Source: Pyrinomonadaceae bacterium
Lineage (GTDB): Bacteria; Acidobacteriota; Blastocatellia; Pyrinomonadales; Pyrinomonadaceae
Length of the DNA stretch: 64,000 bases
Direction: 5' to 3'
Assembly: GCA_036498585.1 (NCBI GenBank)
Contig: DASYFE010000218.1
Coordinates: forward strand, 4,094 to 68,093
Under the pieces are notes generated by a model. That model made no database searches and was not told where the DNA came from. It saw nothing but the letters and a program-made list of their open reading frames with translations. Of this stretch, positions 5,668-60,666 are shown one piece after another. Each line of letters opens with the position of its first letter. The stretch's first letter is position 1. A program made the position numbers and the translations under genes.

Positions 5668-5700
5668 TCTTGTTACCTCGGGAACTGGATAGACTAACAA

Positions 5701-5729
5701 ATCCGTCCCGATCCGTGAAATCCGCGGCT
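5701..5729. repeat. family-C half element
   Basis: ATCCGTCCCGATCCGTGAAATCCGCGGCT is a run of ATCCGTG-type units. Confidence 0.7.
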
Positions 5730-5755
5730 TATTTCTAGTAGTTCCTGGTCTGGAT

Positions 5756-5851
5756 TTCTCTGTGCAACCTCTGTGTTCTCTGTGTCTCTGTGGTTAGTAT
5801 TGCCAGAAAACCACCACGGAGACACAGAGAACACAGAGGTTGCACAGAGAA
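5756..5851. repeat. family-A palindromic repeat (CTCTGTG arrays)
   Basis: TTCTCTGTGCAACCTCTGTGTTCTCTGTGTCTCTGTGGTT is followed by a loop and its inverted copy. Confidence 0.95.
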
Positions 5852-5876
5852 GCAGTTCAAATTAGGTCACCACCGC

Positions 5877-6950
5877 TTATTTCTCGATCAGAAACAGAAA
5901 CTCTCGGTTTGTCTGTTCCGCTTCGCGTATCCATTCGTGCGTCCAACGCATGCCGCCCATCACGTTGCGCTTGTAATCCACTTCCACGACGTCGATCAGC
6001 TTTCCGGAGCGGCTGATCGCGTCGTTCAGCTCTTCCGCCGTAGCTCTGCCACCTGAGCTGTAAGAAAGAATGACGTATCGCGCTTTTGTCTGTTGTAGTA
6101 GTCGCTCGATCGCATCGACCACGATGAACCGTCCAGCTTCATTCTTCCTGTAGTCTTCAAACACCGACGCACTCAAGACGTCGCTCGTGTCTGCGCGCCT
6201 GTTTGCTTTCCCGAATAGGGGTGGGGTGTCGAAGAGGCAGATCGAAGTCCAAAGGTGATAGTAGGCAGCGTAGCGGACGCGGGACGGCGGCATCTTGTCG
6301 TTGTTCGAGCCGTATGGCGGATCGTAATAAGCCAGATCCGCGTCTATCGATCCGGCAAGATCGAAAATATCCGCGTTATGAACTTCATGCTCGCGCGTCT
6401 TTGGAATCAATCTCGGCACGCGCAACTTCATCTCGCGAAACGAGCGTGGCGACCAGTCGCTCAGGTACGAAGCGTAATGTCCGAGGGTGCTGTCGACTTC
6501 GTCCATCGCGAGGATGAGACTCGTTAACGCGACTGCTTTTTCATCAGGACTCAATTGCTCGATCGCCTCGCGGATAGCATCGAGCTTGAGAGTGTTGTGT
6601 CGTTGCCACGGTTTCTTTAGATCATCCGCATCCCCGCCATAGTGTTCGGTGAACCATCCGTCCTTGCCGGGAAGCGCGTTGAGATGGTCGACCAAGTCCT
6701 GGTAATGCGCGGCCTGATGAGGGCTCAACAGATAACAATCACCGAACACCCTGGACCACACGGCGATATCGTTTGCGATCACGCGGTAACCGCATTGCGC
6801 GAACGCCTGCGAGACGCGTGTCGTGCCTGAGAAGCCGTCGAACACAGTTCTTGGTTCAACTCGTGCCGACAAGTCGAGGATGTGAGGCAAGAGCTTTAAC
6901 TTCGAGCCGGCGTACTTGATGCCTTCGGTGCGTGGAATTGTTGATAGCAT
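5877..6950 (-). CDS. D12-class N6-adenine DNA methyltransferase (orphan)
   Basis: The motifs are KYAGSKLKLLPHI, FDGFSGTTRV (SAM-binding FxGxG) and YYDPPYGS (the DPPY catalytic motif). No endonuclease-like neighbour is present. Confidence 0.8.
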   Translation of the reverse strand: MLSTIPRTEGIKYAGSKLKLLPHILDLSARVEPRTVFDGFSGTTRVSQAFAQCGYRVIANDIAVWSRVFGDCYLLSPHQAAHYQDLVDHLNALPGKDGWFTEHYGGDADDLKKPWQRHNTLKLDAIREAIEQLSPDEKAVALTSLILAMDEVDSTLGHYASYLSDWSPRSFREMKLRVPRLIPKTREHEVHNADIFDLAGSIDADLAYYDPPYGSNNDKMPPSRVRYAAYYHLWTSICLFDTPPLFGKANRRADTSDVLSASVFEDYRKNEAGRFIVVDAIERLLQQTKARYVILSYSSGGRATAEELNDAISRSGKLIDVVEVDYKRNVMGGMRWTHEWIREAEQTNREFLFLIEK

Positions 6951-48537: not shown

Positions 48538-48554
48538 GCCGACAGTATAAGTAA

Positions 48555-48639
48555 ACAGAACCGAGCGCGGTAGCGCCGGGTACATTTATCGTCACGCCAC
48601 TCGCGAAAATTCACCCGGCGCTACCGCGCTCGGTTCTGT
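48555..48639. repeat. family-F palindromic repeat
   Basis: ACAGAACCGAGCGCGGTAGCGCCGGGTA is followed by a loop and CACCCGGCGCTACCGCGCTCGGTTCTGT. Confidence 0.95.
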
Positions 48640-48682
48640 ATACTACGTCCGCCTTTGCCTTTCTCTTAGGAGATCGTTAGCT

Positions 48683-49234
48683 ATCAACGAAGAATCGTTC
48701 GCATCCCTACTAGCCTGGCTTTACCCAGACCCCGAAGTAGCCGGGCAAAAGTATGAAGTAATCCGCGCTGGTTTGATCAGGATATTTGTGTCTAAAGGCT
48801 TCAGCGATGCGGAGGATCTTGCAGACGAGACGATTAACCGCGTGATGAAGAGGCTGCCTGAGATTCAGGACACATACGTCGGCGAGCCCGCGCGGTATTT
48901 CCATGGCGTCGCGCGTTACATAATTCGCGAGATGATGCGACGCAAGGAAGTCGCGGTCGAAGAAGTTCCGGGGTTTACGACCGAGGCGGAAGTTCACAGC
49001 GACGAGTACGACTGTTTACAGAAGTGTCTGCGGTTTCTGCCTACAGACAGACGCGAGCTGATTCTCGACTATTACGTCTACGACGGGCGTGACAAAATCG
49101 CGCAACACCGGCGGATGGCGAGCGAGCTTGGGATAACGGAAGGCGCGCTACGTGGCCGGGCGCACCAGGTTCGTGGAAACCTTGAAAAATGCATACAGCA
49201 GTGTATCGAGCGATTGAAGGCAAACGAAAGTTAG
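48683..49234 (+). CDS. ECF-like sigma-70 family sigma factor (sigma-1), putative non-canonical ATC start
   Basis: It is a paralog of 59804-60358, with 30 of 51 hand-aligned positions identical across ESFASLLAWL...EDLADETINRV. Conserved sequence extends 30 codons upstream of the first canonical start (TTG 48773). ATC 48683 lies 10 nt after AGGAG. The conservative coordinates are 48773-49234. Confidence 0.7.
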   Translation: MNEESFASLLAWLYPDPEVAGQKYEVIRAGLIRIFVSKGFSDAEDLADETINRVMKRLPEIQDTYVGEPARYFHGVARYIIREMMRRKEVAVEEVPGFTTEAEVHSDEYDCLQKCLRFLPTDRRELILDYYVYDGRDKIAQHRRMASELGITEGALRGRAHQVRGNLEKCIQQCIERLKANES

Positions 49235-49283
49235 TGTTGGAGACATAGTCAGTAGCGGTGGCTGTAAGTGGGGGAAAATTCTC

Positions 49284-50201
49284 ATCATCAATCAGACGGA
49301 AAAAACTGAATTAAAAGACTATCTTCTCGGCAAGCTCAGGGAAGAAGACGAGGAACGGGTCGAAATTAAATTATTGAGTGACCCGGTTTATATCGAAGAG
49401 TTTGACGTTGTTGTAGATGAATTAACGGATCGATACGTGGCGGGAGAAGTTCAGGACGCGGAGCGCGAGCAAATGGAGCGGCATTTCTTCGCTTCGCCTG
49501 CGCGACGCGAAAAGTTGAGGATTGCCGCGGCGCTGAAAGAGCGCCAACAGAAGAATCGGAGGCGTTGGCTGCCTTCGCTTGAGCTGCGAATTGCGGCTTC
49601 GATTCTCATTATCGCCGGGCTGGCTTTCGGAATCTGGTGGGCGCTCAGAGGTGGTGAATCCGAGTTTGAGAAAGGACTGGCCGCGCTGCAAACGGCTTAC
49701 GCGGGACAACGACCTATCGAGGCGCGTGTCTCGGCGTTGCCGTATTCGACTTACTCGCAAACACGCGGATCCAGCGTTGACGACGGGCGATCCGACAATC
49801 TCCGCCGCGCTCAGTTGCATCTCGAGCAAGCTGTAAAAGAAAAACCGACACCCGAAGCCCATCACGCGCTCGGCAAGGTATATTTAGCGCAAGGCAGGAT
49901 CGACGAGGCTATCAAAGAATTCGAACAGTCGCTCAGCGGAAGTAAAAACCAGGCGCAGGTTTATAACGATCTTGGCGTCGCCTGGCTCGAGAAAGGCGAC
50001 TACACTCGTAGCATCGACAGTTTCAACAAAGCGCTCCAGCTCGACGGCAATTTGCAGGAGGCGCTCTTCAACCGCGCGCTCGCTTACGAAAAACAATCCC
50101 GATCGAACGAGGCGAAGACAGACTGGAACGAGTATCTAAAACGCGACTCGACTTCACCCTGGGCAGACGAAGCACGCCGCCATTTAACCAGGATCAGTTA
50201 A
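49284..50201 (+). CDS. anti-sigma-like membrane protein with extracytoplasmic TPR domain (anti-sigma-1), putative non-canonical ATC start
   Basis: Its N-terminus (TELKDYLLGKL...DELTDRYVAGE...MERHFFASP) is a paralog of 58961-59746. One TM follows (IAASILIIAGLAFGIWWAL), then TPR repeats. The conserved YLLGxL motif lies upstream of the first canonical start (TTG 49374). In-frame ATC codons at 49284 and 49287 follow GGGGA. The conservative coordinates are 49374-50201. Confidence 0.65.
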   Translation: MINQTEKTELKDYLLGKLREEDEERVEIKLLSDPVYIEEFDVVVDELTDRYVAGEVQDAEREQMERHFFASPARREKLRIAAALKERQQKNRRRWLPSLELRIAASILIIAGLAFGIWWALRGGESEFEKGLAALQTAYAGQRPIEARVSALPYSTYSQTRGSSVDDGRSDNLRRAQLHLEQAVKEKPTPEAHHALGKVYLAQGRIDEAIKEFEQSLSGSKNQAQVYNDLGVAWLEKGDYTRSIDSFNKALQLDGNLQEALFNRALAYEKQSRSNEAKTDWNEYLKRDSTSPWADEARRHLTRIS

Positions 50202-50227
50202 ACTGGTCGTGATCGAATTTGAGTTTC

Positions 50228-50313
50228 TTCTCTGTGCAACCTCTGTGTTCTCTGTGTGTCTGTGGTTAAGAAACACCACGGAGACACAGAGAACACAGAG
50301 GTTGCACAGAGAA
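50228..50313. repeat. family-A palindromic repeat
   Basis: TTCTCTGTGCAACCTCTGTGTTCTCTGTGTGTCTGTGGTT is followed by a loop and its inverted copy. Confidence 0.95.
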
Positions 50314-50323
50314 ATCCTATCGA

Positions 50324-50899
50324 ATGCATATCAAGACTATCGCGCTCGGCTCCGATCGTGCGTCGAAGATCATGGCCGTGCGCGCCAGCGTCGCCCGTAT
50401 TGCTACAATCGATCCCGATTGGGCTAACGCAAACGTTATCGCGCGTCGGGTTGAATCAAACGTCCCTTCCATGCCGCTGACTGATTGGCAGTTGATGCAG
50501 GGCGCCCAGGAAAGAGCCTTTGCCGTGCGCGACTCGCTCAAGAATCGTCGCCTTGAAGCGGATATCTATGTTGGGTTAGAAGGCGGGTTTCACTCGGTCT
50601 CCATCGAGGGCGAGTGGCACACCTTCCTGCGCGGTTGGGCTTACGCGACCAACGGCGAGCGCGGCGCGTTTGGCGCTGCGCCTTCGATTACTGTGCCGCC
50701 TGACATCGTCAAGAAGGTGGTCGAAGGTCGACGCGAGTTGGGTATTGTGATAGACGAAGTCACAGGCGGTCGGGATTTACGCAGCAAACAGGGCGCGTGG
50801 GGCGTGCTTTCGCGCGATCTGGTGACGCGATCGATGAGTTTTGAGCTGGCCCTGGTCGCTGCTTTTGCACCGTTTTACAATCCGAAATTTTATTCCTGA
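50324..50899 (+). CDS. yjjX: inosine/xanthosine triphosphatase (YjjX/DUF84 family)
   Basis: It is collinear with E. coli YjjX as I remember it: VGLEGG, ELGIVIDEVTG, KQGAWGVLSRDLVTR and APFYNPKFY. Confidence 0.7.
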   Translation: MHIKTIALGSDRASKIMAVRASVARIATIDPDWANANVIARRVESNVPSMPLTDWQLMQGAQERAFAVRDSLKNRRLEADIYVGLEGGFHSVSIEGEWHTFLRGWAYATNGERGAFGAAPSITVPPDIVKKVVEGRRELGIVIDEVTGGRDLRSKQGAWGVLSRDLVTRSMSFELALVAAFAPFYNPKFYS

Positions 50900-50921
50900 T
50901 GAGAATTAACTAAAAACGAGA

Positions 50922-51542
50922 ATGGATGAACTAGTCACACAAGTTAACCATGAAGAACCGCCGCCACAGTCGCGCGGCGCCGGCTGGATAGAAGTGATTG
51001 CGGGCTCAATGTTTTCCGGCAAGTCGGAAGAGCTCATTCGCCGTTTGCGGCGTGCGAAGATCGCGCGGCAGAAGGTGCAGGTTTTCAAACCCGAGCTGGA
51101 TTCGAGATTTTCAGAGAACCAGATTGTTTCCCACTCCGAGATGCGTCACGACTCGGCGAACAGCCGCTCGGCTGCTGAGATAATCGAGAAAGTCGACGCG
51201 GACACGGAAGTTGTCGGCATCGACGAGGGACAGTTTTTTGATAACGATCTGGTTGAGGTGGCGAATGCCCTCGCTCGCCGTGGGGTGCGCGTGATCATCG
51301 CCGGCTTGGATCAGGACTACACCGGCAGGCCCTGGGAACCGATGCCGCAGCTACTCGCGATTGCCGAGTACATCACGAAGACGCATGCGATCTGCATGAA
51401 GTGTGGCCAACCGGCCAATTACTCGCAGCGGACCTTCGAATCGGAAGAGCGCGTCGCGGTCGGCGCCTCAGACAAATACGAAGCGCGTTGTCGCGGCTGC
51501 TTCGTTCCCCACGCCGACGCCCCGACAGTGCATTCGAATTAG
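50922..51542 (+). CDS. tdk: thymidine kinase
   Basis: It has the P-loop [14 protein letters not shown], the segment [10 protein letters not shown] and a zinc-ribbon lasso (CMKCG...CRGC). Confidence 0.9.
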
Positions 51543-51570
51543 GCCGCAAAGAGGCACAAAGCACAAAAAT
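51542..51570. repeat. family-E half element
   Basis: GGCCGCAAAGAGGCACAAAGCACAAAAAT abuts the next family-A element. Confidence 0.7.
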
Positions 51571-51572
51571 CT

Positions 51573-51673
51573 TTCTCTGTGCAACCTCTGTGTCCTCTGT
51601 GTCTCTGTGGTGTGGTTTTACTCGGAATTCATCAACCACAGAGACACAGAGGACACAGAGGTTGCACAGAGAA
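51573..51673. repeat. family-A palindromic repeat
   Basis: TTCTCTGTGCAACCTCTGTGTCCTCTGTGTCTCTGTGGTGTGGTT is followed by a loop and its inverted copy. Confidence 0.95.
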
Positions 51674-51798
51674 GAGTGCGATCGAGACTTTTTGTGCAAA
51701 GCCTCTCAGCTCAGCATTTTTGTATCTTTTGAACGAAACGTTTTCGCCCGGAAACGACATACGTTAGTGAACCTTCTCTTTTTTAAGGGAGTTCACGT

Positions 51799-54700
51799 AT
51801 GAACATCCGCAAAACTTCCCGGCATCAGTGGTTATCGCGCGCACGTCACTCACGCCGTACCCTCCTGATCATCGCCCTGCTTTCGCTACTCGCCGGCGGT
51901 GCTAGCTTTCGATTTTTCTATTCTGGAAAGTCAGCCGTCACCACCGGTCTTGAAGCGTTGGTTCATGCTTATGAAGGTCGCCGGCCGCTCCAGGCGCGTA
52001 TCTCTGGTCTTGCGTATGCCCCCTTTATCTCCCGTAGAGGTGAATCTGACGATTTCGATGCAGTCAATCGGGACCTCGCCGAACGATTGCTGCTAGAAGC
52101 GGTAGCTGAGAAACCCACATCTTCAGCACGTCAGGCGCTCGGCCAGTTCTATCTGATGTCGGGAAGTCCCACCAAAGCCACAGTCCAATTCGAAGAGGCC
52201 CTGAAGCAGGACAGCAACAACGCATCGCTTCGAAACGACTTTGGCGTAGCCCTCATGGAGATGAGTCACAAGTCTCCCGCCGCTGATTCTGACAACACTT
52301 TGCTTTACGCGGCGAAGGCTCTCGAAGAGTTTGAGACCGCATTAAAGCTCGATTCCAAAAGCGTCGAGGCCTTACACAATCGCGCGTTAGTGCTGGACCA
52401 ACTGAAGCTGCCGCAACAGCGCGACCAGGCATGGCAGGCTTATCTCGCCCGTGAAACGAACCCAGACTGGACGTCGGAAGCAAAACGAACGATTCAAAAC
52501 CTGTCCCAGCCGAATTCAGAGCGGTTGAACCACACTCAGTTGTTGGAAAGTTTCCTCGCCGCAACTCTCGCCGCCGATGACGAAACGTCGTGGCGTGAGT
52601 TGACTCGCAACCAGGAGATGATTACAGAAACGTTCATCCCCCAGGAGCTCACCTACTCTCTGCTCTCTGCGTTGTTGAATAAGAACGCAGACGAGGCGAG
52701 GAAACTAACTAATGCCCTGCGCTACGCCGGAAAGCTCGAGCAGGAAAAAGCCGGCGACCCGTTCGTTTCTGAGATGGCTGCTTTTTACTCGCATCTTTCA
52801 GTCGGGCAACAAAACCAGCTTCACGAGGCCCACGTCCTGCTCAGGAACGGTTACGCCGAATGCCAGAAAGGCAATTACAACTCAGATCTGTTCGAGCAGT
52901 CGCGCAAGTTGTTTCTGCGCGCCGGCGACGTGTTGGAAGCGAAGATCTGTGACTACTGGATTGCTTATTGTCTGAGTCAAAAACCGGACATTGAAAAGAG
53001 CACTGAGCTGCTGTCGTCGCTCGCGAAGTTTGCCAAAGCAAAGCATTACTACTGGCTCGAAGGACAGGCGACCGCCTGGATCGCAAACAATCACACAGAG
53101 CGGCGCGAGTATTCGAAATCGCTCGAAAGTTACAACGACGCGCTCCCGATCGTGACGCGGATTAACGACGTCTACAACCAGCAAAAGGTTCTCACTCAAA
53201 CCGGTAACAACTACATGCTGCTCGGTCAGCCCGAGCGTGCCCTGCAATACGACTGGCGGGCGCTGCGACTCATCGATCCGGTGTCAAACAGCGTCCGCCA
53301 AACGTGGCGCACTTATCTTTACACCGCTCGCGCACTGGCCGCGCTGGGCTTATATGAAGCTGCCGCGCAATACGGCGCGGCGATGCTCAGCCTGGCGGTG
53401 AACGATCCGGCGATGGTGCACTTTTCTTACCGGTATCTGGCCCAGATCAACGGCGGCAAGAAAGATTTTGCGGAAGCATTTCGGCTCGCTTCGGAGAGCA
53501 TGAAATTTGCGAATACAGTGAAGCTTCGAACCGAATCTTTGTTGCTGCTCGGTCACCTCCAGCGCCAGTCTGGCGCGATTGAAGACGCAGTCAAGAACTA
53601 CAGCGAGGCGATTGATAACTACAACAAAATAAACCCGGGTGTTTATAAATACGATGCTCTCAAGGGACGTCTGCTCTGTTACCTCGCGCTCAAAGACACC
53701 GCGAATTTCGAAGCCCAGCTTCCGATCGTGCTCGAAGAGTTTGAGAAGCAGCGTGAGGACATCTTCGAAGAGCAGAATCGAAACGTCTTTTTCGATCGCG
53801 AACAGAACGTCTACGACTTCGCGATCGATCATGAGTTTGAAAAGCACGACTATCTGAGTGCGTTGAATTATTCGGAACAGTCACGCGCTCGCTCGCTGCT
53901 CAAGGCGCTAAATGAAAAGAACCCTGAGACCGCTTCTGCCGCGCCGCTGCATCCAGCCGAGTTACAGCGCGGGCTGCCGGCGAACGTACAGGTCTTGCAG
54001 TATGCAGTGCTGGACGACAAGCTCGTCGTCTGGCTGGTAACCAACAACAAGATCGATGCTAAAACTAAGAACATTCGCGCTGACGAGTTGCGCGCCCTGG
54101 TGACTGAATACGTCAAGGGGATTTCCAGCGGTCCAGGTAAGGCCGACAAGTTGCGAGCCGTCTCGCAGAAACTTTACGACACGTTGATTGGACCGTTCAG
54201 CGACGCTCTCGATCCACGTCGTGTGCTCTGCATCATTCCCGACAAGGCGCTGAGTTACGTTCCCTTCGACGCACTCATCTCGCCCGTATCGCAACGATAT
54301 CTGCTCAGTGAGTTCTCGGTATTTACGTCACCAAGCTTGAACGTCCTCGTGCGCGCTTCGTGGATCGCGAAAGATTACTCGAATGCGAGCGCTGAAACAC
54401 TGCTCAGCATCGGTAATCCATCTTTCGATCGCGGAGAGTATCCGGAGCTCGACGATTTGCCGGCAGCGGCGCGAGAAGCCACCGGGATCGCGGCTAACTA
54501 TTCGAAGTCGTACCAGCTCATTGGCCCACAAGCAGTCAAGAACGTTATCGAAAAGCAATTGCCCGGCGCCGACGTAATCCACTTTGCGGGTCACTACGTC
54601 ACCAACCAGGCGGAGCCGCTCATGTCAAAACTCGTGCTCGCAAAGCAAAAAGGATCCGAGAACGGCGATTTAAGTCTCGGCGAGCTGGTCAACATGAAAC

Positions 54701-55023
54701 TGACGCGCACGAAGCTGGTGGTGTTATCGGCATGTGAGACGAGTGGAAAAGACTACTACAACGGTGAAGGTCTGATCGGAGTCGCGCGAACGTTTTTGCG
54801 CACCGGCATTCCGCTCGTAGTCGCCAGCCAGTGGTCAGTCGAATCGGAATCCACCGCGCAACTGATGTTGAAGTTTCACCGTTATCGAAAACTGCCCGGA
54901 ATTTCCAGTCTTGCAGCCCTGCGTAAGGCACAGCTCGAGTTGCTCGAAGATCCAAACGGTCTTTACAGCGACCCATATTACTGGGCGGCCTTCACCACAG
55001 TCGGCGGCTATGCAGATTTCTAA
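51799..55023 (+). CDS. membrane-anchored TPR repeat + CHAT (caspase-like) domain protein
   Basis: A basic N-terminus is followed by one TM (TLLIIALLSLLAGGASF). About 650 aa of TPR-like helical repeats precede a C-terminal CHAT domain. The catalytic dyad motifs are VIHFAGH (His932, nt 54592-54594) and LVVLSACETS (Cys979, nt 54733-54735). The protein ends PYYWAAFTTVG. AAGGGAG SD is present upstream. Confidence 0.85.
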   Translation: MNIRKTSRHQWLSRARHSRRTLLIIALLSLLAGGASFRFFYSGKSAVTTGLEALVHAYEGRRPLQARISGLAYAPFISRRGESDDFDAVNRDLAERLLLEAVAEKPTSSARQALGQFYLMSGSPTKATVQFEEALKQDSNNASLRNDFGVALMEMSHKSPAADSDNTLLYAAKALEEFETALKLDSKSVEALHNRALVLDQLKLPQQRDQAWQAYLARETNPDWTSEAKRTIQNLSQPNSERLNHTQLLESFLAATLAADDETSWRELTRNQEMITETFIPQELTYSLLSALLNKNADEARKLTNALRYAGKLEQEKAGDPFVSEMAAFYSHLSVGQQNQLHEAHVLLRNGYAECQKGNYNSDLFEQSRKLFLRAGDVLEAKICDYWIAYCLSQKPDIEKSTELLSSLAKFAKAKHYYWLEGQATAWIANNHTERREYSKSLESYNDALPIVTRINDVYNQQKVLTQTGNNYMLLGQPERALQYDWRALRLIDPVSNSVRQTWRTYLYTARALAALGLYEAAAQYGAAMLSLAVNDPAMVHFSYRYLAQINGGKKDFAEAFRLASESMKFANTVKLRTESLLLLGHLQRQSGAIEDAVKNYSEAIDNYNKINPGVYKYDALKGRLLCYLALKDTANFEAQLPIVLEEFEKQREDIFEEQNRNVFFDREQNVYDFAIDHEFEKHDYLSALNYSEQSRARSLLKALNEKNPETASAAPLHPAELQRGLPANVQVLQYAVLDDKLVVWLVTNNKIDAKTKNIRADELRALVTEYVKGISSGPGKADKLRAVSQKLYDTLIGPFSDALDPRRVLCIIPDKALSYVPFDALISPVSQRYLLSEFSVFTSPSLNVLVRASWIAKDYSNASAETLLSIGNPSFDRGEYPELDDLPAAAREATGIAANYSKSYQLIGPQAVKNVIEKQLPGADVIHFAGHYVTNQAEPLMSKLVLAKQKGSENGDLSLGELVNMKLTRTKLVVLSACETSGKDYYNGEGLIGVARTFLRTGIPLVVASQWSVESESTAQLMLKFHRYRKLPGISSLAALRKAQLELLEDPNGLYSDPYYWAAFTTVGGYADF

Positions 55024-55043
55024 ATCAAGCTAAGGAGAAAACG

Positions 55044-55964
55044 ATGCCCCTATCACATAACAACGTAACCGCAACCGTTTCGTTAACAGGCCTGGCACTC
55101 GGCTGTTACAACGAATCCACTCAAAATTATGAAGTCGGATTGATCCGGCAAGAGACCCACACTTTGACAATTGAAGTCACTAAAAAACTCGCCGGGGGAG
55201 ATTCTGTGATGAAGTTTACGCTCGACAAGAATCACCGGATCTTCATTGACGCCGAGAATGCCATCTTGCCGGAGTACCCCATTTACATGGACGGCGAGAA
55301 TTTCAGTCGTAGTGATGATACCCATGACAAGGAAGACTTCCGGTGGGTGATCGACTTCGAAAAGGAATTGAATAATGGAAACCCGGTCACGTTACAGCGC
55401 CCGGAGAAGCTTGTCGTGACGGAGATGTATGTGTCGAAACCGACACTATATGCTGATCGTTTATTGATGTCCGCCGATCCGTTCTCGCTTGTAACAATCG
55501 ATCCCACCACTAACGGTCCTGTGAACGAAGCGCCGAAAGATTTCGGATTGTTCACCGAGGGGATCAAGGCCGATATCAGATGTCAAAACGGTGGCGCCGT
55601 GATCCTTAGAGTCGATGGTCCACAAGGATTTCAGATACACCTTCCGCATGGTTCGGCTGCGCCCCACGAAATCGTTATCGAGAACATTTGCCCGCCGAAG
55701 GCAAATGGTACGAATAACGAGGCTAACGGCGAGGAAGCGGCCGGCACGACTGAGGGGGAATCAAATGGCGCTTCCGCTTCCTCTGACACAGAATTTATTC
55801 CGTCTGATTTCACTCTGTATTACTCGCTGATTGTCGATACGGACGGAAAAAAGTTTGACCTCAAACGATCGAACCCTGACGAAGAAGGCGAGGGCGCGGT
55901 GTGCAACGGCAGTTCTCTCGGATCCCGAGCGAGTCTGTTTCCATTGCCAGCGTCGTCGTCCTAA
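55044..55964 (+). CDS. hypothetical protein (no recognisable domain), cotranscribed between CHAT and S8 genes
   Basis: The 306-aa ORF has AAGGAG 7 nt upstream and begins 20 nt after the CHAT stop. I see no signal peptide or TM. The composition is beta-rich, with an acidic, Gly/Asn/Ser-rich low-complexity segment near the C-terminus. Confidence 0.7.
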   Translation: MPLSHNNVTATVSLTGLALGCYNESTQNYEVGLIRQETHTLTIEVTKKLAGGDSVMKFTLDKNHRIFIDAENAILPEYPIYMDGENFSRSDDTHDKEDFRWVIDFEKELNNGNPVTLQRPEKLVVTEMYVSKPTLYADRLLMSADPFSLVTIDPTTNGPVNEAPKDFGLFTEGIKADIRCQNGGAVILRVDGPQGFQIHLPHGSAAPHEIVIENICPPKANGTNNEANGEEAAGTTEGESNGASASSDTEFIPSDFTLYYSLIVDTDGKKFDLKRSNPDEEGEGAVCNGSSLGSRASLFPLPASSS

Positions 55965-55991
55965 TCGTTCCTCATCCCAAAGGAGCAGATT

Positions 55992-57530
55992 ATGGAATGG
56001 AATCTCAAGTTCAACGGAACTCCCGTCACCTTGCAAGTAGCCAATCCGCTTGTAGTACTGCCCGAGATCGCCACGTCTGTGGTACCCGAGGGTATCAAAA
56101 CAAAGGCGCCAGACGATGCAGGAGACAGTCTCGAGGACTACGATCACCGGCAAAGAGATCGCGAGGTATTTCAAAAAGCAGGTTGGCAATTCGGTGGGTC
56201 TGGCTCGCTGGCGGCTACTGTGCCACAGACCAAAGGATCTCGTCCGGGCACTGAAACTCCTCGTCCGGTATTTGTTACGGATACCGGCGACTTTCTGATT
56301 GGAACTGACGTCGCTACCGTGCAACTGAACGCGGCTGCTGTGACGACGGAAGCCACAGCGAAAAAAGTGCTCGCTGAAGATGGTCTAACAATACTTCACC
56401 AGCTCAGTTTTGCTCCTCATCTTTACGCCGTTCGTTTGCCTTGGAAAGCACCATTGCAAGAGACGATCAATGCGCTGCAGGCAAAGACTCACCGCTACGT
56501 CTTTGCAGAGCCCAGCATGCTGCAGCGGATGAGCGGCCGCGAAATGCCCAACGATGCGGATTTCAAGTTCGCGTGGCAGCATGGCGCGACACCAGATAAT
56601 GGTGGTGGTTTTGGTCTGGATTCGATACCCGCGTGGGAGTTAACTACGGGCAAGAGTGAACAGCGTCCGGTGCGAATAGCCGTCATCGACAATGGTATGG
56701 ACATCGCTCATGTTGACTTACGAGGCGCTATAGTCGACGGCGGCTTTTTCATTCCTGAAGAGCCAGGTGCGGGTACGGTCACGTTCACTCGTTTTACGCC
56801 TGAGATAACAGGCTTTCCGCGCCGTGGTCATGGGACGTTCTGTCTGGGAATGGTGGGCGCAAGGCGGAACAATGGCAACGGAGGCTGTGGAGTTGCTCCT
56901 GATTCAGAGCTGATTGCGCTCGCGTGTGCGCACGATCAAACAGGGAACCAGCTCACACTCGCGCGCGCGATCGAGTTTGCAGTTAATCCCAAATCTGTAG
57001 ATCCTGACGGGCCGGAAACCCTCGGGGCTGACATCATCTCCTGCAGTCTCAGGACGGCAGGTGTACTGGAGACGGTGTTGGAGATGGCGATCAACTCAAC
57101 TACTTCGGGACGTGGTGGCCTGGGAATTCCGCTCTTCTGGGCGGTTAGTAATTTAAACGACCGGCCTATCAGCGTAGACAAGGTTTGTTCACATGAAACG
57201 GTAATCGCTGTTGGCCGTTCGAATCGAGATGGCTTACCGGACGGGTCAGCGTCTGGTCCAGAGCTGGATTTCCTCGCTCCGGGAGTTGATGTTTTAGGAC
57301 CTACGCAGGGGGAAGACAACATCAAGAACACTGGTACGAGCTTCGCTGCGCCGCTGGCGGCTGGCGTTGCGGCTCTGGTTATGGCTCGTCATCCTGAGTG
57401 GCCTGCTAAAAAAATCCGCCAGCGTCTCCAGGACACTTGCGACAAACCGATCGTCGCGGATCGGACCACTATCGGGTTTGGTCGTATTAACGCTCACCGC
57501 GCCGTTCAGGAGAATCAAAACGGTAATTGA
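55992..57530 (+). CDS. S8 family subtilisin-like serine protease with long N-terminal extension, no signal peptide
   Basis: The catalytic triad motifs are VAVIDNGMD (Asp), GHGTFCLGMVGA (His) and GTSFAAPLAAGVAAL (Ser). A region of about 215 aa precedes the catalytic domain. AAGGAG lies 6 nt upstream, 27 nt after the preceding stop. Confidence 0.85.
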   Translation: MEWNLKFNGTPVTLQVANPLVVLPEIATSVVPEGIKTKAPDDAGDSLEDYDHRQRDREVFQKAGWQFGGSGSLAATVPQTKGSRPGTETPRPVFVTDTGDFLIGTDVATVQLNAAAVTTEATAKKVLAEDGLTILHQLSFAPHLYAVRLPWKAPLQETINALQAKTHRYVFAEPSMLQRMSGREMPNDADFKFAWQHGATPDNGGGFGLDSIPAWELTTGKSEQRPVRIAVIDNGMDIAHVDLRGAIVDGGFFIPEEPGAGTVTFTRFTPEITGFPRRGHGTFCLGMVGARRNNGNGGCGVAPDSELIALACAHDQTGNQLTLARAIEFAVNPKSVDPDGPETLGADIISCSLRTAGVLETVLEMAINSTTSGRGGLGIPLFWAVSNLNDRPISVDKVCSHETVIAVGRSNRDGLPDGSASGPELDFLAPGVDVLGPTQGEDNIKNTGTSFAAPLAAGVAALVMARHPEWPAKKIRQRLQDTCDKPIVADRTTIGFGRINAHRAVQENQNGN

Positions 57531-57532
57531 GA

Positions 57533-57595
57533 TTTCTCTGCGATCTCTGCGGACTCTGCGTTGAATAGCTCTTTAACGCAGAGAACCGCAGAGTC
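57533..57595. repeat. family-B palindromic repeat
   Basis: TTTCTCTGCGATCTCTGCGGACTCTGCGTT is followed by a loop and AACGCAGAGAACCGCAGAGTC. It starts 3 nt after the S8 stop. Confidence 0.9.
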
Positions 57596-57711
57596 AGGCA
57601 ACTAACCTCCCATCAACATCGTCTCACCGCGCAAGAAGTCTTCATAATTTCGTTCCTTTAGTCTCCCCGCGGTTGTCTCCCCGGCAATCCACCTTCACTA
57701 GGAGTACGACA

Positions 57712-58746
57712 ATGAAGCCTAAGCACCTAACCACAACAACCTTTTTCTGTCTCCTCCTCGCATTAGGACTGTTCATCAACGCCATGGCCCAAAGAGGGCA
57801 GGACGCGGCGGCTGAGTCGAATTACCGGCTTTCCGGTCCATACACTCACGGCAATCTGACCGTGTTTCTCGTCCACGGAAAGGATTTGACTAGCAAGACC
57901 TTCCTCACGCTTCAGGAAGCTCTCGCGCAAAAGAAGGTCAGGGTTTATGAAACCAAAGACGTGAACGAGCTTGCCATCAGAAATCTTTCGAACCAGGACA
58001 TCTACGTTCAAGCCGGCGATATCGTGCGCGGCGGCGATCAGGACCGCATGATCTCGATCGACTTTATCGTTCCGCCAAACTCAGGCCGCATGCCGATCGC
58101 GGCGTTCTGTGTCGAATCGGGACGTTGGAGCAAACGTGGAAACGAGGAAAATGCGTTATTCGACAGCTCTGAAAACATGATCGCCGGGAAGGATCTCAAG
58201 CTCGCGGCTAAACGAGAGCGGTCGCAGGAAGCCGTTTGGAAGAACGTCAGCGTTGCGCAGGAGAAGTTAAGTGCGAACGTTGGCGGCAACGTGCAGGCTA
58301 CCGCGTCAGCGTCGAGTCTTGAGTTGACGGTTGAGAATGCGAAAGTGAAAGAAAACACGGAAGCCTACATCAAGGCGCTTTCCGGAATACTGCAAAACAA
58401 GTCAGACGTGATTGGTTATGTCTTTGCGATTAACGGACACGTCAACAGCGCGGACGTTTACGCTTCACGCGCATTGTTCGCGAAGCTCTGGCCCAAGTTG
58501 CTGAAGGCGAGCGCGGTCGAAGCGGTGGCGGAGTTGAATAAAGACGCCGCAGCGTCGCCGGTCGTGAGTGAGGTCGTGCATACATTTCTCACAGACTCAG
58601 AGAAGGCGCGGGCCGAAGAGCGACAAGTCACGCGGCGCGTGAAGGTCGTGACGCGAGAAGACGAGAAGAACATCTTCTTCGAAACCCAGGACCGTGCGGC
58701 AAACGATGGCTGGGTTCATCGAAACTACATCCGTAAAGAGCAGTGA
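57712..58746 (+). CDS. secreted DUF6569 / ARPP-1-like domain protein
   Basis: It has a signal peptide (MKPKHLTTTTFFCLLLALGLFINAMAQ). The N-terminal block HGNLTVFLVHG...LTLQEAL...VRVYE...VNELAIRNLSNQDIYVQAGDIVRGGDQDRMI...IAAFCVESGRW matches my memory of the DUF6569/ARPP-1 signature (GxKQNR ... CxExxRW). This was not verified by search. I prefer ATG 57712 (AGGAG 7 nt upstream) over the track start 57673. Confidence 0.55.
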   Translation: MKPKHLTTTTFFCLLLALGLFINAMAQRGQDAAAESNYRLSGPYTHGNLTVFLVHGKDLTSKTFLTLQEALAQKKVRVYETKDVNELAIRNLSNQDIYVQAGDIVRGGDQDRMISIDFIVPPNSGRMPIAAFCVESGRWSKRGNEENALFDSSENMIAGKDLKLAAKRERSQEAVWKNVSVAQEKLSANVGGNVQATASASSLELTVENAKVKENTEAYIKALSGILQNKSDVIGYVFAINGHVNSADVYASRALFAKLWPKLLKASAVEAVAELNKDAAASPVVSEVVHTFLTDSEKARAEERQVTRRVKVVTREDEKNIFFETQDRAANDGWVHRNYIRKEQ

Positions 58747-58755
58747 GATCTTCAT

Positions 58756-58795
58756 CCACAGATTACACAGATAAAAATCCGCGTAATCTGTGGCT
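58756..58795. repeat. family-C palindromic repeat
   Basis: CCACAGATTACACAGATAAAAATCCGCGTAATCTGTGGCT. Confidence 0.85.
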
Positions 58796-58807
58796 AAAAA
58801 CCGCAAA

Positions 58808-58838
58808 GGCGAGCGACTGTTCACAAGGTCGCTCGTCA
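58808..58838 (+). terminator. hairpin / possible terminator after the DUF6569-like gene
   Basis: A GGCGAGCGAC / GTCGCTCGTC stem with one G-U pair is followed by ATTGCTTT. Confidence 0.4.
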
Positions 58839-58960
58839 TTGCTTTAGGGGTGAGGGGTATGTCGCGCGTGGGGTGTTTATTCAATGCGACGCTTCAATGG
58901 TTATGACTTTAGCGGCTCAAACATTTCAGAAATATTTTTAGGCGGTTGGTTAGTGAGGAC

Positions 58961-59746
58961 TTACTCGATTACACGGAAAGAATATTTCTCGATAAACTCG
59001 TCGGCGCCAGATTCCCGCACGCCACTCAACTTCAATTCATAATCACCCGGACTCAGAACCTCTCCAGTGATAGTGACCGGAACAATGTACTGCTGGCCCT
59101 TGGGTTCCACTCTTAACTCCCCATGGGTCTGCACTGACTTGTTTTCCCGAAACAGCTCAGACTTGTAGTTTCGAAAGCTCGGGTTTGCCAGCTCGAGCTC
59201 CAGTTTTAAGTCGTACCCTTTAGGTGGAACGTTCACTCGTGGCGCAGCCGCGGCTGCAAGCGTGACCACAACCACCGGCTCGTCGCGCTGCTGGGCCAAA
59301 CGCGACTGCGGTCTTCTGTAGCCCAACCAGCACAGCAAAGCTACGCCGAGCAGAACCACGCCTGCGACGCTAAACACCATCACTGGCCGGCCAGCCGCAG
59401 GCAACATAGAAAAGGTCAAAGATTTTTTCGCGGGAGCGCTATTTTCGACGTGAGGTATTACGGCGGCGGCTGGATTCGAGTTCACATAGCGTTTCAGCAA
59501 TTGCCCGAAGCGCAGGTTCTTTTGACGTTCAGCCGTGATCAGGAAGTGAGTCTCAAACTGCCGGCGTTCGTGTTCGGAGAGAGCACCGGCTGCGTATTGA
59601 TCGATCAACTCTTCTTCAACGAGCAAAAGTTCTTCGTAAGTCTCGGGCGCAGAAAGAACCTGCTCTTCCAACTGCGTTTTGCGATCGGCATCCAAAACGC
59701 CCAACAAATAGCTTCTTACCTCTTGTTTGTCAGCGGTGAGATTCAA
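58961..59746 (-). CDS. anti-sigma-like membrane protein (anti-sigma-2)
   Basis: Its N-terminus (VRSYLLGVLD...EELIDQYAAGAL...FETHFL) is a paralog of anti-sigma-1. One TM follows (VMVFSVAGVVLLGVALLCWLGY), then a beta-rich ectodomain of about 100 aa with no TPR. Confidence 0.7.
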   Translation of the reverse strand: MNLTADKQEVRSYLLGVLDADRKTQLEEQVLSAPETYEELLLVEEELIDQYAAGALSEHERRQFETHFLITAERQKNLRFGQLLKRYVNSNPAAAVIPHVENSAPAKKSLTFSMLPAAGRPVMVFSVAGVVLLGVALLCWLGYRRPQSRLAQQRDEPVVVVTLAAAAAPRVNVPPKGYDLKLELELANPSFRNYKSELFRENKSVQTHGELRVEPKGQQYIVPVTITGEVLSPGDYELKLSGVRESGADEFIEKYSFRVIE

Positions 59747-59803
59747 ATTGTGTCTCCGGCAACAGGTACTTCTGATCTTTATGACTGTAGAGCGCCACTT
59801 ATT

Positions 59804-60358
59804 TCATCCAAGTGAGCGCTCGATACACTTCTCCACACACTCTTTCAGGCCCATCCGAATACGATAAACCCGAATACGCAAAGCATTTGGAGCGATTCCG
59901 AGCTCTTCTGCGAGGGCGCGTCGATGTTCTGTTTCCGCGGGACCAGCCGCGCCGTGATACCGCAGCAGCAGCTCGCGATGCTCTTTGCTTAGTCGCTCGA
60001 TACAGCGTTCGAGACAACTATATTCCAACTCGATCCGGTCTGGATCGGTTGTTGGAGGCGGCGCAGGCTGAGGGAGTTTCCGCCTCAGGTGTTCAAGATG
60101 AACTTTGTTAGCGACGCCGAAGAAGTAGCGTGTGCGGTCGCCGCTAAATTCTTTTTCGATTTCTTTGAGCTTGCTGGTGACGCGGTTAATTGTTTCGTCG
60201 GCGAGGTCTTCGGGCTCGACGCACCCGCGCCCGGTGAAGATCTTGATCAGGCTGCGCCTGATTTTCTCGTACTTAAGGGCGGCTTGTTCGCGATCGGAAT
60301 CAAGCCAATCAAGCAACGCGTCAAAAGCTTCCTGTGACAATTCCCAATCTTTGTTCAT
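59804..60358 (-). CDS. ECF-like sigma-70 family sigma factor (sigma-2)
   Basis: It starts MNKDWELSQEAFDALLDWL and has a region-2-like segment DLADETINRV. The region-4-like HTH is LAEELGIAPNALRIRVYRIRMGL. It lies directly upstream of anti-sigma-2. Confidence 0.8.
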   Translation of the reverse strand: MNKDWELSQEAFDALLDWLDSDREQAALKYEKIRRSLIKIFTGRGCVEPEDLADETINRVTSKLKEIEKEFSGDRTRYFFGVANKVHLEHLRRKLPQPAPPPTTDPDRIELEYSCLERCIERLSKEHRELLLRYHGAAGPAETEHRRALAEELGIAPNALRIRVYRIRMGLKECVEKCIERSLG

Positions 60359-60571: not shown

Positions 60572-60666
60572 CCCCTCTGCGTAGCCTCTGTGATCTCTGC
60601 GTCTCTGCGGTTTACCAGTTATATTCACCGCCGAGGCGCAGAGATCGCAGAGGCTACGCAGAGATC
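60572..60666. repeat. family-B palindromic repeat
   Basis: CCCCTCTGCGTAGCCTCTGTGATCTCTGCGTCTCTGCGGTTT is followed by a loop and its inverted copy. Confidence 0.9.

Follow-up and report, generated by a model that had tools for sequence, protein, structure and literature searches.

What brings together, in one stretch of bacterial DNA, two sigma/anti-sigma pairs, a caspase-like CHAT protease with tetratricopeptide repeats (TPRs), an orphan protein and a subtilase? The question is raised by positions 48683 to 60358 of a 64,000-nucleotide stretch, hereafter the window, of contig DASYFE010000218.1 from a Pyrinomonadaceae bacterium. An earlier annotation made from the letters alone, the sequence-only reading, took these genes, together with one for a secreted DUF6569-like protein, for a transcriptionally gated, envelope-located proteolytic cascade in signalling or defence. 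All nine of the open reading frames (ORFs) that it placed here are present, in the order and at the coordinates claimed (Table 1). It knew of no described system that combines such parts; DdvS/DdvA (PMC6061681, PMC11506125) and the neighbourhood of ECF54 (PMC8999054) are precedents. The core of the locus is, in all likelihood, a cassette that joins a sigma factor of the extracytoplasmic function (ECF) class to a TPR-CHAT anti-sigma system of the DdvA type.

In Myxococcus xanthus DdvS belongs to the ECF sigma factors and DdvA is a single-pass anti-sigma factor whose N-terminal domain binds zinc and whose TPR-CHAT region, of about 900 residues, is periplasmic (PMC6061681, PMC11506125). The Pfam CHAT model (PF12770) matches residues 787-1069 of the 1074 of the window's CHAT protein with an E-value of 1.7e-60, in addition to TPR matches; the caspase-like domain as a whole covers about residues 727-1074 and is preceded by a long TPR solenoid, and the cytoplasmic N-terminus is short and basic. 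A hydropathy scan found a single transmembrane helix in each of anti-sigma-1, the CHAT protein and anti-sigma-2, and a signal peptide in the ARPP-1 protein. The CHAT protein is predicted to be anchored in the membrane by a single pass, with its CHAT domain in the periplasm, and the dyad of H932 (HFAGH) and C979 (LSACET) does not vary among 43 homologues. The protein was modelled with AlphaFold2 (43 sequences; predicted local distance difference test, pLDDT, 87.7; predicted template modelling score, pTM, 0.78), and the model was compared with the PDB by Foldseek. The top matches were the DdvA entries 8RW5 and 8ROT_A (E-values of 3.5e-21 and 6.3e-21, TM-scores of 0.57-0.68, over 1000 aligned columns), which outrank Csx29 of Craspase and the separases. 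The sequence profile of the CHAT family also matches DdvA, in the first TPR region (E = 7e-15). The model shows no structure for a linker at about residues 58-87, although its sequence is highly conserved.

The genes around the CHAT gene recur in other genomes. A metagenome scan with a narrow alignment of the orphan family (A4) gave three loci, all orthologous to the window, and a scan of a genome collection gave five; the relatives bear Pyrinomonadaceae labels. The orthologous loci (L001-L004 and L014-L017) share housekeeping flanks and are therefore evidence for vertical inheritance only; independent contexts were examined for close and distant members of the orphan family. In L013 the genes for a sigma factor (197 amino acids, aa), a TPR-bearing anti-sigma factor (332 aa), a CHAT protein (1102 aa), an orphan member (274 aa) and an S8 peptidase (527 aa) are contiguous; L018, flanked by SurA/ABC-F and carotenoid genes, keeps this order but has two orphan paralogues. 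In L009/L010 and L011/L012, with T2SSE/RND and trmE-yidC-rnpA flanks, a sigma gene is followed by a fused CHAT gene (1174 or 1181 aa), an orphan-like gene and a gene for a protein with trypsin motifs. A fused CHAT gene (1200 aa) precedes an orphan-like gene and a 614-aa S8 peptidase in L007, while in L008, from Heliomicrobium, the tail of a CHAT gene is followed by an orphan-like gene and a C39-like peptidase. Sigma, fused CHAT and two orphan paralogues make up L006, where the paralogues have Tat-type signals, and also L019 and L021 (CHAT proteins of 1191 or 1203 aa), with a NAL1/trypsin-like protease a few genes downstream of the paralogues in L019. L022 (64.5% guanine plus cytosine, GC) has a CHAT gene and, after a 23-nt gap, an orphan-like gene, and the orthologous L001 has one sigma gene and then a single fusion of 1197 aa.

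An orphan-family gene lies behind a DdvA-type CHAT gene in 11 of the 12 sampled non-orthologous contexts, in loci that range from 39 to 65% GC; the sole sampled context without a CHAT gene is L020, with a lone orphan member that carries a Sec signal. The conserved unit is a sigma factor, an anti-sigma factor, a TPR-CHAT protein and one or more orphan proteins. A peptidase, not always of the same catalytic class, usually comes next, and orphan genes are linked to CHAT more tightly than peptidase genes are. The sequence-only reading had treated seven proteins as one system and offered co-occurrence across genomes as its check. Part of this stands: sigma, anti-sigma, CHAT, orphan and S8 recur together (L013, L018), adjacent in unrelated contexts and far beyond chance, and the ARPP-1 gene and the sigma-2/anti-sigma-2 pair, which are confined to the orthologous lineage, do not.

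These observations also bear on the view that the locus is a chance gathering of secreted proteases of the ordinary nutrient kind and of ECF pairs that have nothing to do with them. ARPP-1 and sigma-2/anti-sigma-2 are indeed neighbours in one lineage only, the cluster is interrupted by yjjX-tdk, and Acidobacteria carry many ECF sigma factors, TPR proteins and peptidases. For the five-gene core this view is already contradicted, as one gene order (sigma, anti-sigma, CHAT, orphan, peptidase) is met again and again in unrelated contexts across that whole range of GC content, fusions of anti-sigma and CHAT exist, and the S8 peptidase has no secretion signal; as an account of the locus we consider it extremely improbable.

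The fusions indicate on which side of the sigma factor the CHAT protein acts. In seven loci (L001, L006, L007, L009, L011, L019 and L021) one protein comprises a cysteine-free anti-sigma domain (ASD; RxYLLGxL...EDELIDxY...FExxFL), a transmembrane helix, the linker, the TPRs and the CHAT domain. It measures 1174-1203 aa and is encoded directly behind a sigma gene in six of them, all except L007, for which the upstream sigma gene was not identified. Since the ASD is part of the TPR-CHAT protein in these loci, the CHAT module would be the part that senses the signal and inactivates the anti-sigma factor, and not merely an effector induced by the sigma factor. The logic of transcriptionally gated proteolysis put forward by the sequence-only reading is for this reason probably reversed.

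The split form is seen in the window and in L002, L003, L013, L016, L017 and L018. No single polypeptide in the window unites all the parts: the ASD, a transmembrane helix and TPRs are encoded at 49284-50201, and a transmembrane helix, TPRs and the CHAT domain at 51799-55023. The two halves are related to one another. Over the whole of its extracytoplasmic part (residues 111-305), anti-sigma-1 can be aligned with residues 33-236 of the CHAT protein (36% identity over 208 aa, E = 3e-32), and the shared region contains the juxtamembrane motif GLxAL..AY...RPxEARxS...YAP....RG. The periplasmic part of anti-sigma-1 is thus, in its entirety, a paralogue of the juxtamembrane linker and first TPRs of the CHAT protein. 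In the lineage of the window the halves are separated by yjjX-tdk, flanked by two copies of a hairpin like the repetitive extragenic palindromes (REPs). In L013 and L018 neither gene stands between anti-sigma and CHAT; the two are housekeeping genes located between the halves of the cassette and do not belong to it.

The sigma factors are divergent. Single sequences fall just short of the thresholds for Sigma70_r2/r4 and TIGR02937 (39.3 bits, with the cutoff at 42.9), and a family profile built from ten members matches the ECF factors SigL, SigE and SigW across sigma2-sigma4 with E-values of 4e-5 to 8e-4. On these matches the ECF assignment of both sigma factors is weak but real. They are 42% identical to one another (E = 7e-44), and the N-termini of the anti-sigma factors are 37% identical over 86 aa (E = 4e-10), which bears out the earlier description of two paralogous pairs; the C-termini of the anti-sigma factors are unrelated, and the C-terminal extracytoplasmic domain of anti-sigma-2 is unrelated to TPR-CHAT as well. 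Sigma-1 is 58% identical to the sigma factor of the independent cassette L018, and sigma-2 is 50-55% identical to those of L001, L006 and L013. As sigma-1 ends at 49234 and anti-sigma-1 begins at 49284, the ECF gene stands directly upstream of the anti-sigma gene.

Matches of the anti-sigma factors to zf-HC2 and to anti-sigma models in Pfam and NCBIfam are weak. Anti-sigma-1 contains no cysteine and anti-sigma-2 a single one, inside its transmembrane helix. The alignment of the sigma family (A10) has conserved cysteines flanking sigma4, namely C46, C115xxxC119 and C174xxxC178 in the numbering of sigma-2. The CHAT-associated sigma factors carry this conserved pattern (C..CxxxC..CxxxC), and the cognate anti-sigma domains carry no conserved cysteine; together, these features suggest that the sigma factor itself bears a site for metal binding or redox sensing.

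The genes of the first pair have no canonical start codon at their coordinates, and appear to begin instead with ATC at 48683-48685 and 49284-49286. The isoleucine starts are kept in the relatives L002 (3820 and 4418) and L017 (4848 and 5446) as ATC, or ATA in L017. A stop codon 1-4 codons upstream leaves no canonical start for sigma-1 in L002 and L017 or for anti-sigma-1 in L002, while for anti-sigma-1 of L017 there is a TTG in frame, six codons upstream from the ATC. The N-terminal residues of both proteins are conserved at the protein level, and the isoleucine starts follow good Shine-Dalgarno sequences; in the independent cassettes L013 and L018 the starts are ATG or TTG. With isoleucine start codons, translation may be held at a low level or may respond to initiation factor 3 (IF3).

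The cryo-EM dimer of DdvA suggests that CHAT cleaves the linker between transmembrane helix and TPRs in trans, and that cleavage by RseP and release of DdvS follow (PMC11506125). We propose for the window a split switch of the DdvS/DdvA type in which proteolysis gates transcription, a mechanistic reading that we hold to be moderately probable. In this scheme anti-sigma-1 would hold sigma-1 at the membrane through its cysteine-free N-terminal domain, and its periplasmic TPRs would pair with the homologous region of the TPR-CHAT protein, mimicking the DdvA homodimer. Upon a periplasmic signal, CHAT would act as site-1 protease and cut the anti-sigma factor in the linker RPxEARxS..YAP....RG; intramembrane proteolysis would then release sigma-1 to transcribe its targets. 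The earlier proposal of an envelope-located proteolytic cascade survives in part, as envelope signalling linked to proteolysis; the orphan and the S8 peptidase, which have no signal peptide or transmembrane helix, do not fit it.

Several observations weigh against the proposed mechanism. Cleavage by CHAT is only proposed for DdvA itself (PMC11506125). DdvA has a CHCC zinc site in its zinc-binding ASD (ZASD), whereas the anti-sigma domains of the window and of the fused relatives are free of cysteine. The sigma factors of the window are not detectably related in sequence to DdvS and have CxxxC pairs of their own, and a search of the PDB with sigma-1 and sigma-2 gave no match to DdvS. The conserved motif of the linker between transmembrane helix and TPRs has no sequence match in the PDB, DdvA included, and a search for a shared ECF promoter (AAC-N15-19-CGT) upstream of all sigma and CHAT genes found nothing consistent. 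Without export signals, the orphan and the S8 peptidase cannot meet a periplasmic CHAT domain unless exported unconventionally, and two of the five cassette genes fall outside the mechanism.

What these two genes contribute is approached through their families. The 306-aa protein is an orphan, as the sequence-only reading had it, with no match in Pfam, NCBIfam, PADLOC or PHROGs. Close relatives number 95 cluster representatives at 43-95% identity. A profile search of 1.84 billion representatives returned 439 at E<=0.001, of which 181 reach E<=1e-10; the 439 are of about 260-320 aa and all unannotated. The AlphaFold2 model (30 sequences; pLDDT 80.4, pTM 0.79) is confident and all-beta, with a disordered acidic linker at residues 221-247 followed by a conserved C-terminal segment, and Foldseek found no match to its fold in the PDB or BFVD at E<=0.001. 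Among 60 diverse members G16, H39, Y136 and C287 are invariant and G168, N214, D255 and Y260 nearly so; the conserved cysteines are C21, C180, C216 and C287. The hydropathy scan found no hydrophobic segment, signal peptide or transmembrane helix in the orphan or in the S8 peptidase. Most CHAT-linked members begin at M-P/T/S-L-x-H (MPLxH in the window), and Tat or Sec signals occur in a minority, in the two L006 paralogues (Tat) and in several others that include P0132, P0133, P0136 and P0139 (Sec/Tat). Tandem duplication is common, with two paralogues of 25-45% identity per cassette (L017 13991-14890; L018 11303-12163; L006 8740-10789; L019 8997-9890; L021 8966-9841). The orphan is a beta-sandwich family almost always tied to DdvA-type CHAT genes, and a hitherto unrecognised partner family. 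The idea that it resembles a gasdermin, a phage protein or a toxin was rejected after negative searches of PADLOC, PHROGs, the PDB and BFVD.

The S8 peptidase matches PF00082 (E = 1.8e-27) and has the triad D233, H280 and S450, in the order D-H-S, with the oxyanion residue N387; as judged from these residues and the CHAT dyad, the catalytic motifs of both proteases are intact, as described earlier. Its N-terminal extension of about 220 aa resembles a subtilase propeptide by eye. Orthologues stand behind the orphan gene in L013, L018, L014, L015 and L017. Elsewhere the peptidase next to the orphan varies between S8, trypsin-like (NAL1-like) and C39-like, and cassettes L006 and L021 have none adjacent. 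The trypsin-like fourth gene of L009 and L011 has H/D/S motifs (LSNAHVLAD, DAAIA, GDSGS) and a weak match to Nal1_C (E = 0.012), to which the PDB adds no support. The trypsin-like proteases at L019 11466-13556 and L009 10989-12053 match domains of plant NARROW LEAF 1 (NAL1_N, Nal1_C) weakly, a hint at a bacterial NAL1-like protease family.

The orphan and the peptidase may be a regulator or ligand of the switch that is processed by a protease, or the cytoplasmic output of the switch. In one form of this idea the orphan is the specific partner that TPR-CHAT anti-sigma factors have so far lacked, and the second protease processes it, as the signal that fires CHAT or for the release of an effector, in a widespread and self-contained relay. 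We put this forward tentatively and think it rather doubtful. If true, it would provide a new protein family and the first candidate ligand or substrate for DdvA-type signalling.

The changing class of the peptidase (S8, trypsin/NAL1-like, C39-like and, in Myxococcus, C25) suggests a generic need for a protease, and this is one of the points that speak for a sigma-gated effector cascade, in which the sigma factors induce CHAT, orphan and S8, and S8, CHAT or the two together cleave the orphan linker to release an active beta-sandwich fragment, which may be toxic or defensive, by a gasdermin-like logic. The orphan and S8, with no signal peptides, would be together in the cytoplasm; the acidic disordered linker is of variable length and precedes the segment with the invariant C287; the CHAT operon has a conserved promoter candidate of its own; and the equivalent genes of Myxococcus belong to an operon induced by DdvS. 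We nevertheless consider this cascade unlikely. The orphan is unlike gasdermins or any toxin in sequence and fold, a CHAT domain predicted to be periplasmic cannot act on a cytoplasmic orphan, and the fusion of ASD and CHAT in most relatives puts CHAT upstream of the sigma factor. Furthermore, cassettes L006 and L021 dispense with an adjacent peptidase, and the locus lies among housekeeping genes and is passed on vertically in the family, outside any defence island.

The export signals of some orphan members (Tat or Sec) lead to another alternative, in which a periplasmic orphan serves, as RseB does, as a sensor or protector on the TPR-CHAT/anti-sigma complex, and the peptidase is, like DegS, the true site-1 protease or produces a ligand from the orphan. 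The four conserved cysteines could form disulfides, the orphan is tied more closely to CHAT than the peptidase is, and the authors of the DdvA studies expect an as yet unidentified periplasmic protein as signal or partner (PMC6061681, PMC11506125). Against this, the orphan of the window and most CHAT-linked members start at MPLxH with no signal peptide, S8 likewise has none, and in L020, the one context studied of a member that is clearly secreted, no CHAT gene stands beside it. We regard an accessory role of this kind as distinctly improbable.

Table 1. Coordinates of the features of the locus in the window.
Feature	Position	Strand	Description
sigma-1	48683-49234	+	Divergent ECF-type sigma factor, 183 aa; start ATC behind AGGAG
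anti-sigma-1	49284-50201	+	305 aa; ASD about 1-90, transmembrane helix 96-123, periplasmic linker and TPR; start ATC
REP-like perfect hairpin, CTCTGTG...CACAGAG family	50227-50314		Left bracket of yjjX-tdk
yjjX (NTPase_I-T)	50324-50899	+	PF01931; housekeeping
tdk (TK)	50922-51542	+	PF00265; housekeeping
REP-like hairpin, second copy	51574-51672		Right bracket of yjjX-tdk
Bipartite motif GAAACGTTT-N14-CATA	51735-51761	+	Promoter candidate, CHAT-orphan-S8 operon
TM-TPR-CHAT protein	51799-55023	+	1074 aa; transmembrane (TM) helix 21-41, TPR solenoid, CHAT domain
Orphan	55044-55964	+	306 aa; unannotated all-beta family
S8 subtilase	55992-57530	+	512 aa; PF00082; no signal peptide
GGCAAC-N17-CGTCT	57597-57623	+	ECF-type promoter candidate upstream of ARPP-1
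ARPP-1 protein	57712-58746	+	344 aa; PF20208; signal peptide residues 6-27
anti-sigma-2	58961-59746	-	261 aa; Cys-free-type anti-sigma domain, transmembrane helix 117-144, short C-terminal extracytoplasmic domain
sigma-2	59804-60358	-	184 aa; sigma-1 paralogue, CHAT-associated ECF family

The CHAT, orphan and S8 genes form the tight operon described by the sequence-only reading, with gaps of 20 nt (CHAT-orphan) and 27 nt (orphan-S8) and ribosome-binding sites of the AGGAG type (AAGGGAG, AAGGAG and AAGGAG, in gene order). The motif GAAACGTTT-N14-CATA is unique in the window and occurs once each in L002, L003, L016 and L017, each time upstream of CHAT, which makes it a candidate promoter of the operon. 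As ECF patterns occur at chance frequency in the window, only phylogenetic footprints are reported here as promoter candidates; a simple scan for sigma-70 promoters and terminators gave counts no higher than those of shuffled controls.

The DUF6569/ARPP-1-like secreted protein of the sequence-only reading was borne out as a full-length PF20208 protein with a signal peptide (E = 6.3e-61, 206.7 bits against a cutoff of 27, residues 38-339). Its gene is present only at orthologous loci and absent from every non-orthologous cassette. The sigma-2/anti-sigma-2 pair is absent from all non-orthologous occurrences and also from the orthologous L001 and L014, where the ARPP-1 gene abuts the next conserved gene. 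ARPP-1 and sigma-2/anti-sigma-2 are lineage-specific neighbours and not parts of the cassette, and sigma-2/anti-sigma-2 is a younger paralogous pair that lost TPR-CHAT. The S8 stop codon is followed by a hairpin and then by GGCAAC-N17-CGTCT, of which the boxes are invariant and the spacer variable across six orthologous loci; the bare pattern (GCAAC-N16-18-CGTC, also GAAC-N16-18-CGTC) is at chance frequency in the window. L014 retains the motif although it has no sigma-2. The ARPP-1 gene is a separate transcription unit with a candidate ECF-type promoter of its own. Its leader of about 90 nt (57624-57711) contains GCAAGAAGTCTTCA, TTCGTTCC and, twice, GTCTCCCCG, and its DNA is strongly conserved in L002, L003, L004, L014 and L017. 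The leader matches no Rfam family; it is more conserved than the surrounding intergenic DNA and so may be a structured or regulatory 5' untranslated region.

Perfect hairpin repeats (TCTCTGTGCAACCTCTGTGT..CTCTGTG / CACAGAG..) lie in intergenic DNA at 50227-50314, 51574-51672, 60573-60665, about 1898 and 5769-5838, and their 16-nt core has 10 matches against 0.44 expected. As RNA genes the hairpins were rejected, since an Rfam search of 48-61.5 kb gave only sub-threshold matches to microRNA models; we read them as REP-like repeats. The genes that flank the locus are HMGL-like, M20, yjjX, tdk, uvrC and PfkB genes. Between the divergent HMGL-like gene and sigma-1 (48538-48682) there is a 27-bp inverted repeat, ACAGAACCGAGCGCGGTAGCGCCGGGT ... 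ACCCGGCGCTACCGCGCTCGGTTCTGT, and the listed ATG of the HMGL-like ORF (48585) is probably upstream of its true start (MTIDELV...). In L018 a 1076-aa secreted protein with weak matches to the P-domain of proprotein convertases and to TIG is encoded divergently upstream of the cassette (2654-5884, minus strand).

Known systems share parts of this arrangement. Among the conflict and defence systems, the bacterial gasdermin-protease pair finds no counterpart, as there is no gasdermin sequence or fold in the orphan (PADLOC and Pfam; PDB and BFVD at E<=0.001). PADLOC returned nothing for the cassette proteins beyond a subtilase model of a generic kind, and housekeeping genes make up the flanks; none of this lends support to the defence role that the sequence-only reading had allowed. 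ARPP is a probable sugar-acting enzyme domain of ARG-centred conflict systems, and exported variants exist (PMC9503650). The product of 57712-58746 is likewise a full-length ARPP-1 domain protein, but it is exported and stands alone, with no ARG, Macro or REase partner seen, and it is linked to the CHAT cassette in one lineage only. Craspase (type III-E: Cas7-11, the TPR-CHAT protein Csx29, Csx30, Csx31 and RpoE) also ties a TPR-CHAT protein to an ECF sigma factor and a regulatory substrate, and Csx29 is the second-best fold match of the CHAT model. In contrast to the membrane-anchored, periplasmic CHAT protein predicted for the window, Craspase is a cytoplasmic complex that is guided by RNA and associated with CRISPR. 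No Cas match, Cas7-11 included, came up for the cassette proteins in PADLOC, Pfam and NCBIfam (CRISPR arrays elsewhere in the window were not scanned for), and no PDB chain, those of the Craspase-Csx30 complexes included, matches the orphan fold.

Among the systems of sigma control, the RseA/RseB/DegS/RseP pathway of sigma-E has in common with the proposed switch a single-pass anti-sigma factor inactivated by site-1 and site-2 proteolysis, with accessory proteins encoded nearby. It differs in that the presumed site-1 protease of the cassette is a caspase-like domain built into the anti-sigma factor or paired with it, and neither of the accessory proteins here, orphan and S8, is related to RseB or DegS or has an export signal. 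ECF54 of Actinobacteria is reported to have a neighbourhood with a carboxypeptidase, a subtilase, CHAT and 4Fe-4S proteins and no anti-sigma factor, and its sigma factor has been proposed to be controlled by proteolysis (PMC8999054, PMC7826278). A subtilase and CHAT proteins are common to both neighbourhoods, whereas the cassette has clear anti-sigma domains and no carboxypeptidase is conserved across the independent cassettes, the sigma factors being compared by neighbourhood description only.

The closest precedent is DdvS/DdvA; among anti-sigma factors that contain a caspase-like domain, only DdvA has been characterised. Both systems have an ECF sigma gene and, next to it, a single-pass anti-sigma system with a periplasmic TPR-CHAT region, a His-Cys dyad and a flexible linker between the transmembrane helix and the TPRs. 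The ddv operon, which is induced by DdvS, runs from ddvS and ddvA to genes for an unknown protein and a C25-type peptidase (PMC6061681, PMC11506125). The operon of the window similarly continues with an orphan and a peptidase, where the orphan is likened to the unknown protein of Myxococcus by gene position alone and the peptidase is S8 rather than C25. The DdvS/DdvA regulon is an adjacent defence island (CBASS and type III-B CRISPR), and none is found nearby in the window, which has housekeeping flanks instead. The fused relatives share the architecture of Myxococcus DdvA, while in the window the anti-sigma system is split into two proteins with yjjX-tdk between them. DdvA-like proteins have been reported only from Myxococcota and one Comamonas (PMC6061681, PMC11506125), a narrow distribution. 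The host of the window belongs to Acidobacteriota, in which the DdvA-like design is common, and the design is present in genomes of very different GC content.

Fused and split forms both occur naturally, and the split form, by parting the sigma-binding half from the protease half, offers a ready test of cleavage in trans. The conserved linker is a candidate cleavage site, and the orphan family and the protease usually adjacent to it are concrete candidates for partners of the switch. Taken together, the core of the region is very probably an acidobacterial, split, non-zinc DdvA-like switch, accompanied by a new partner family and an interchangeable protease.

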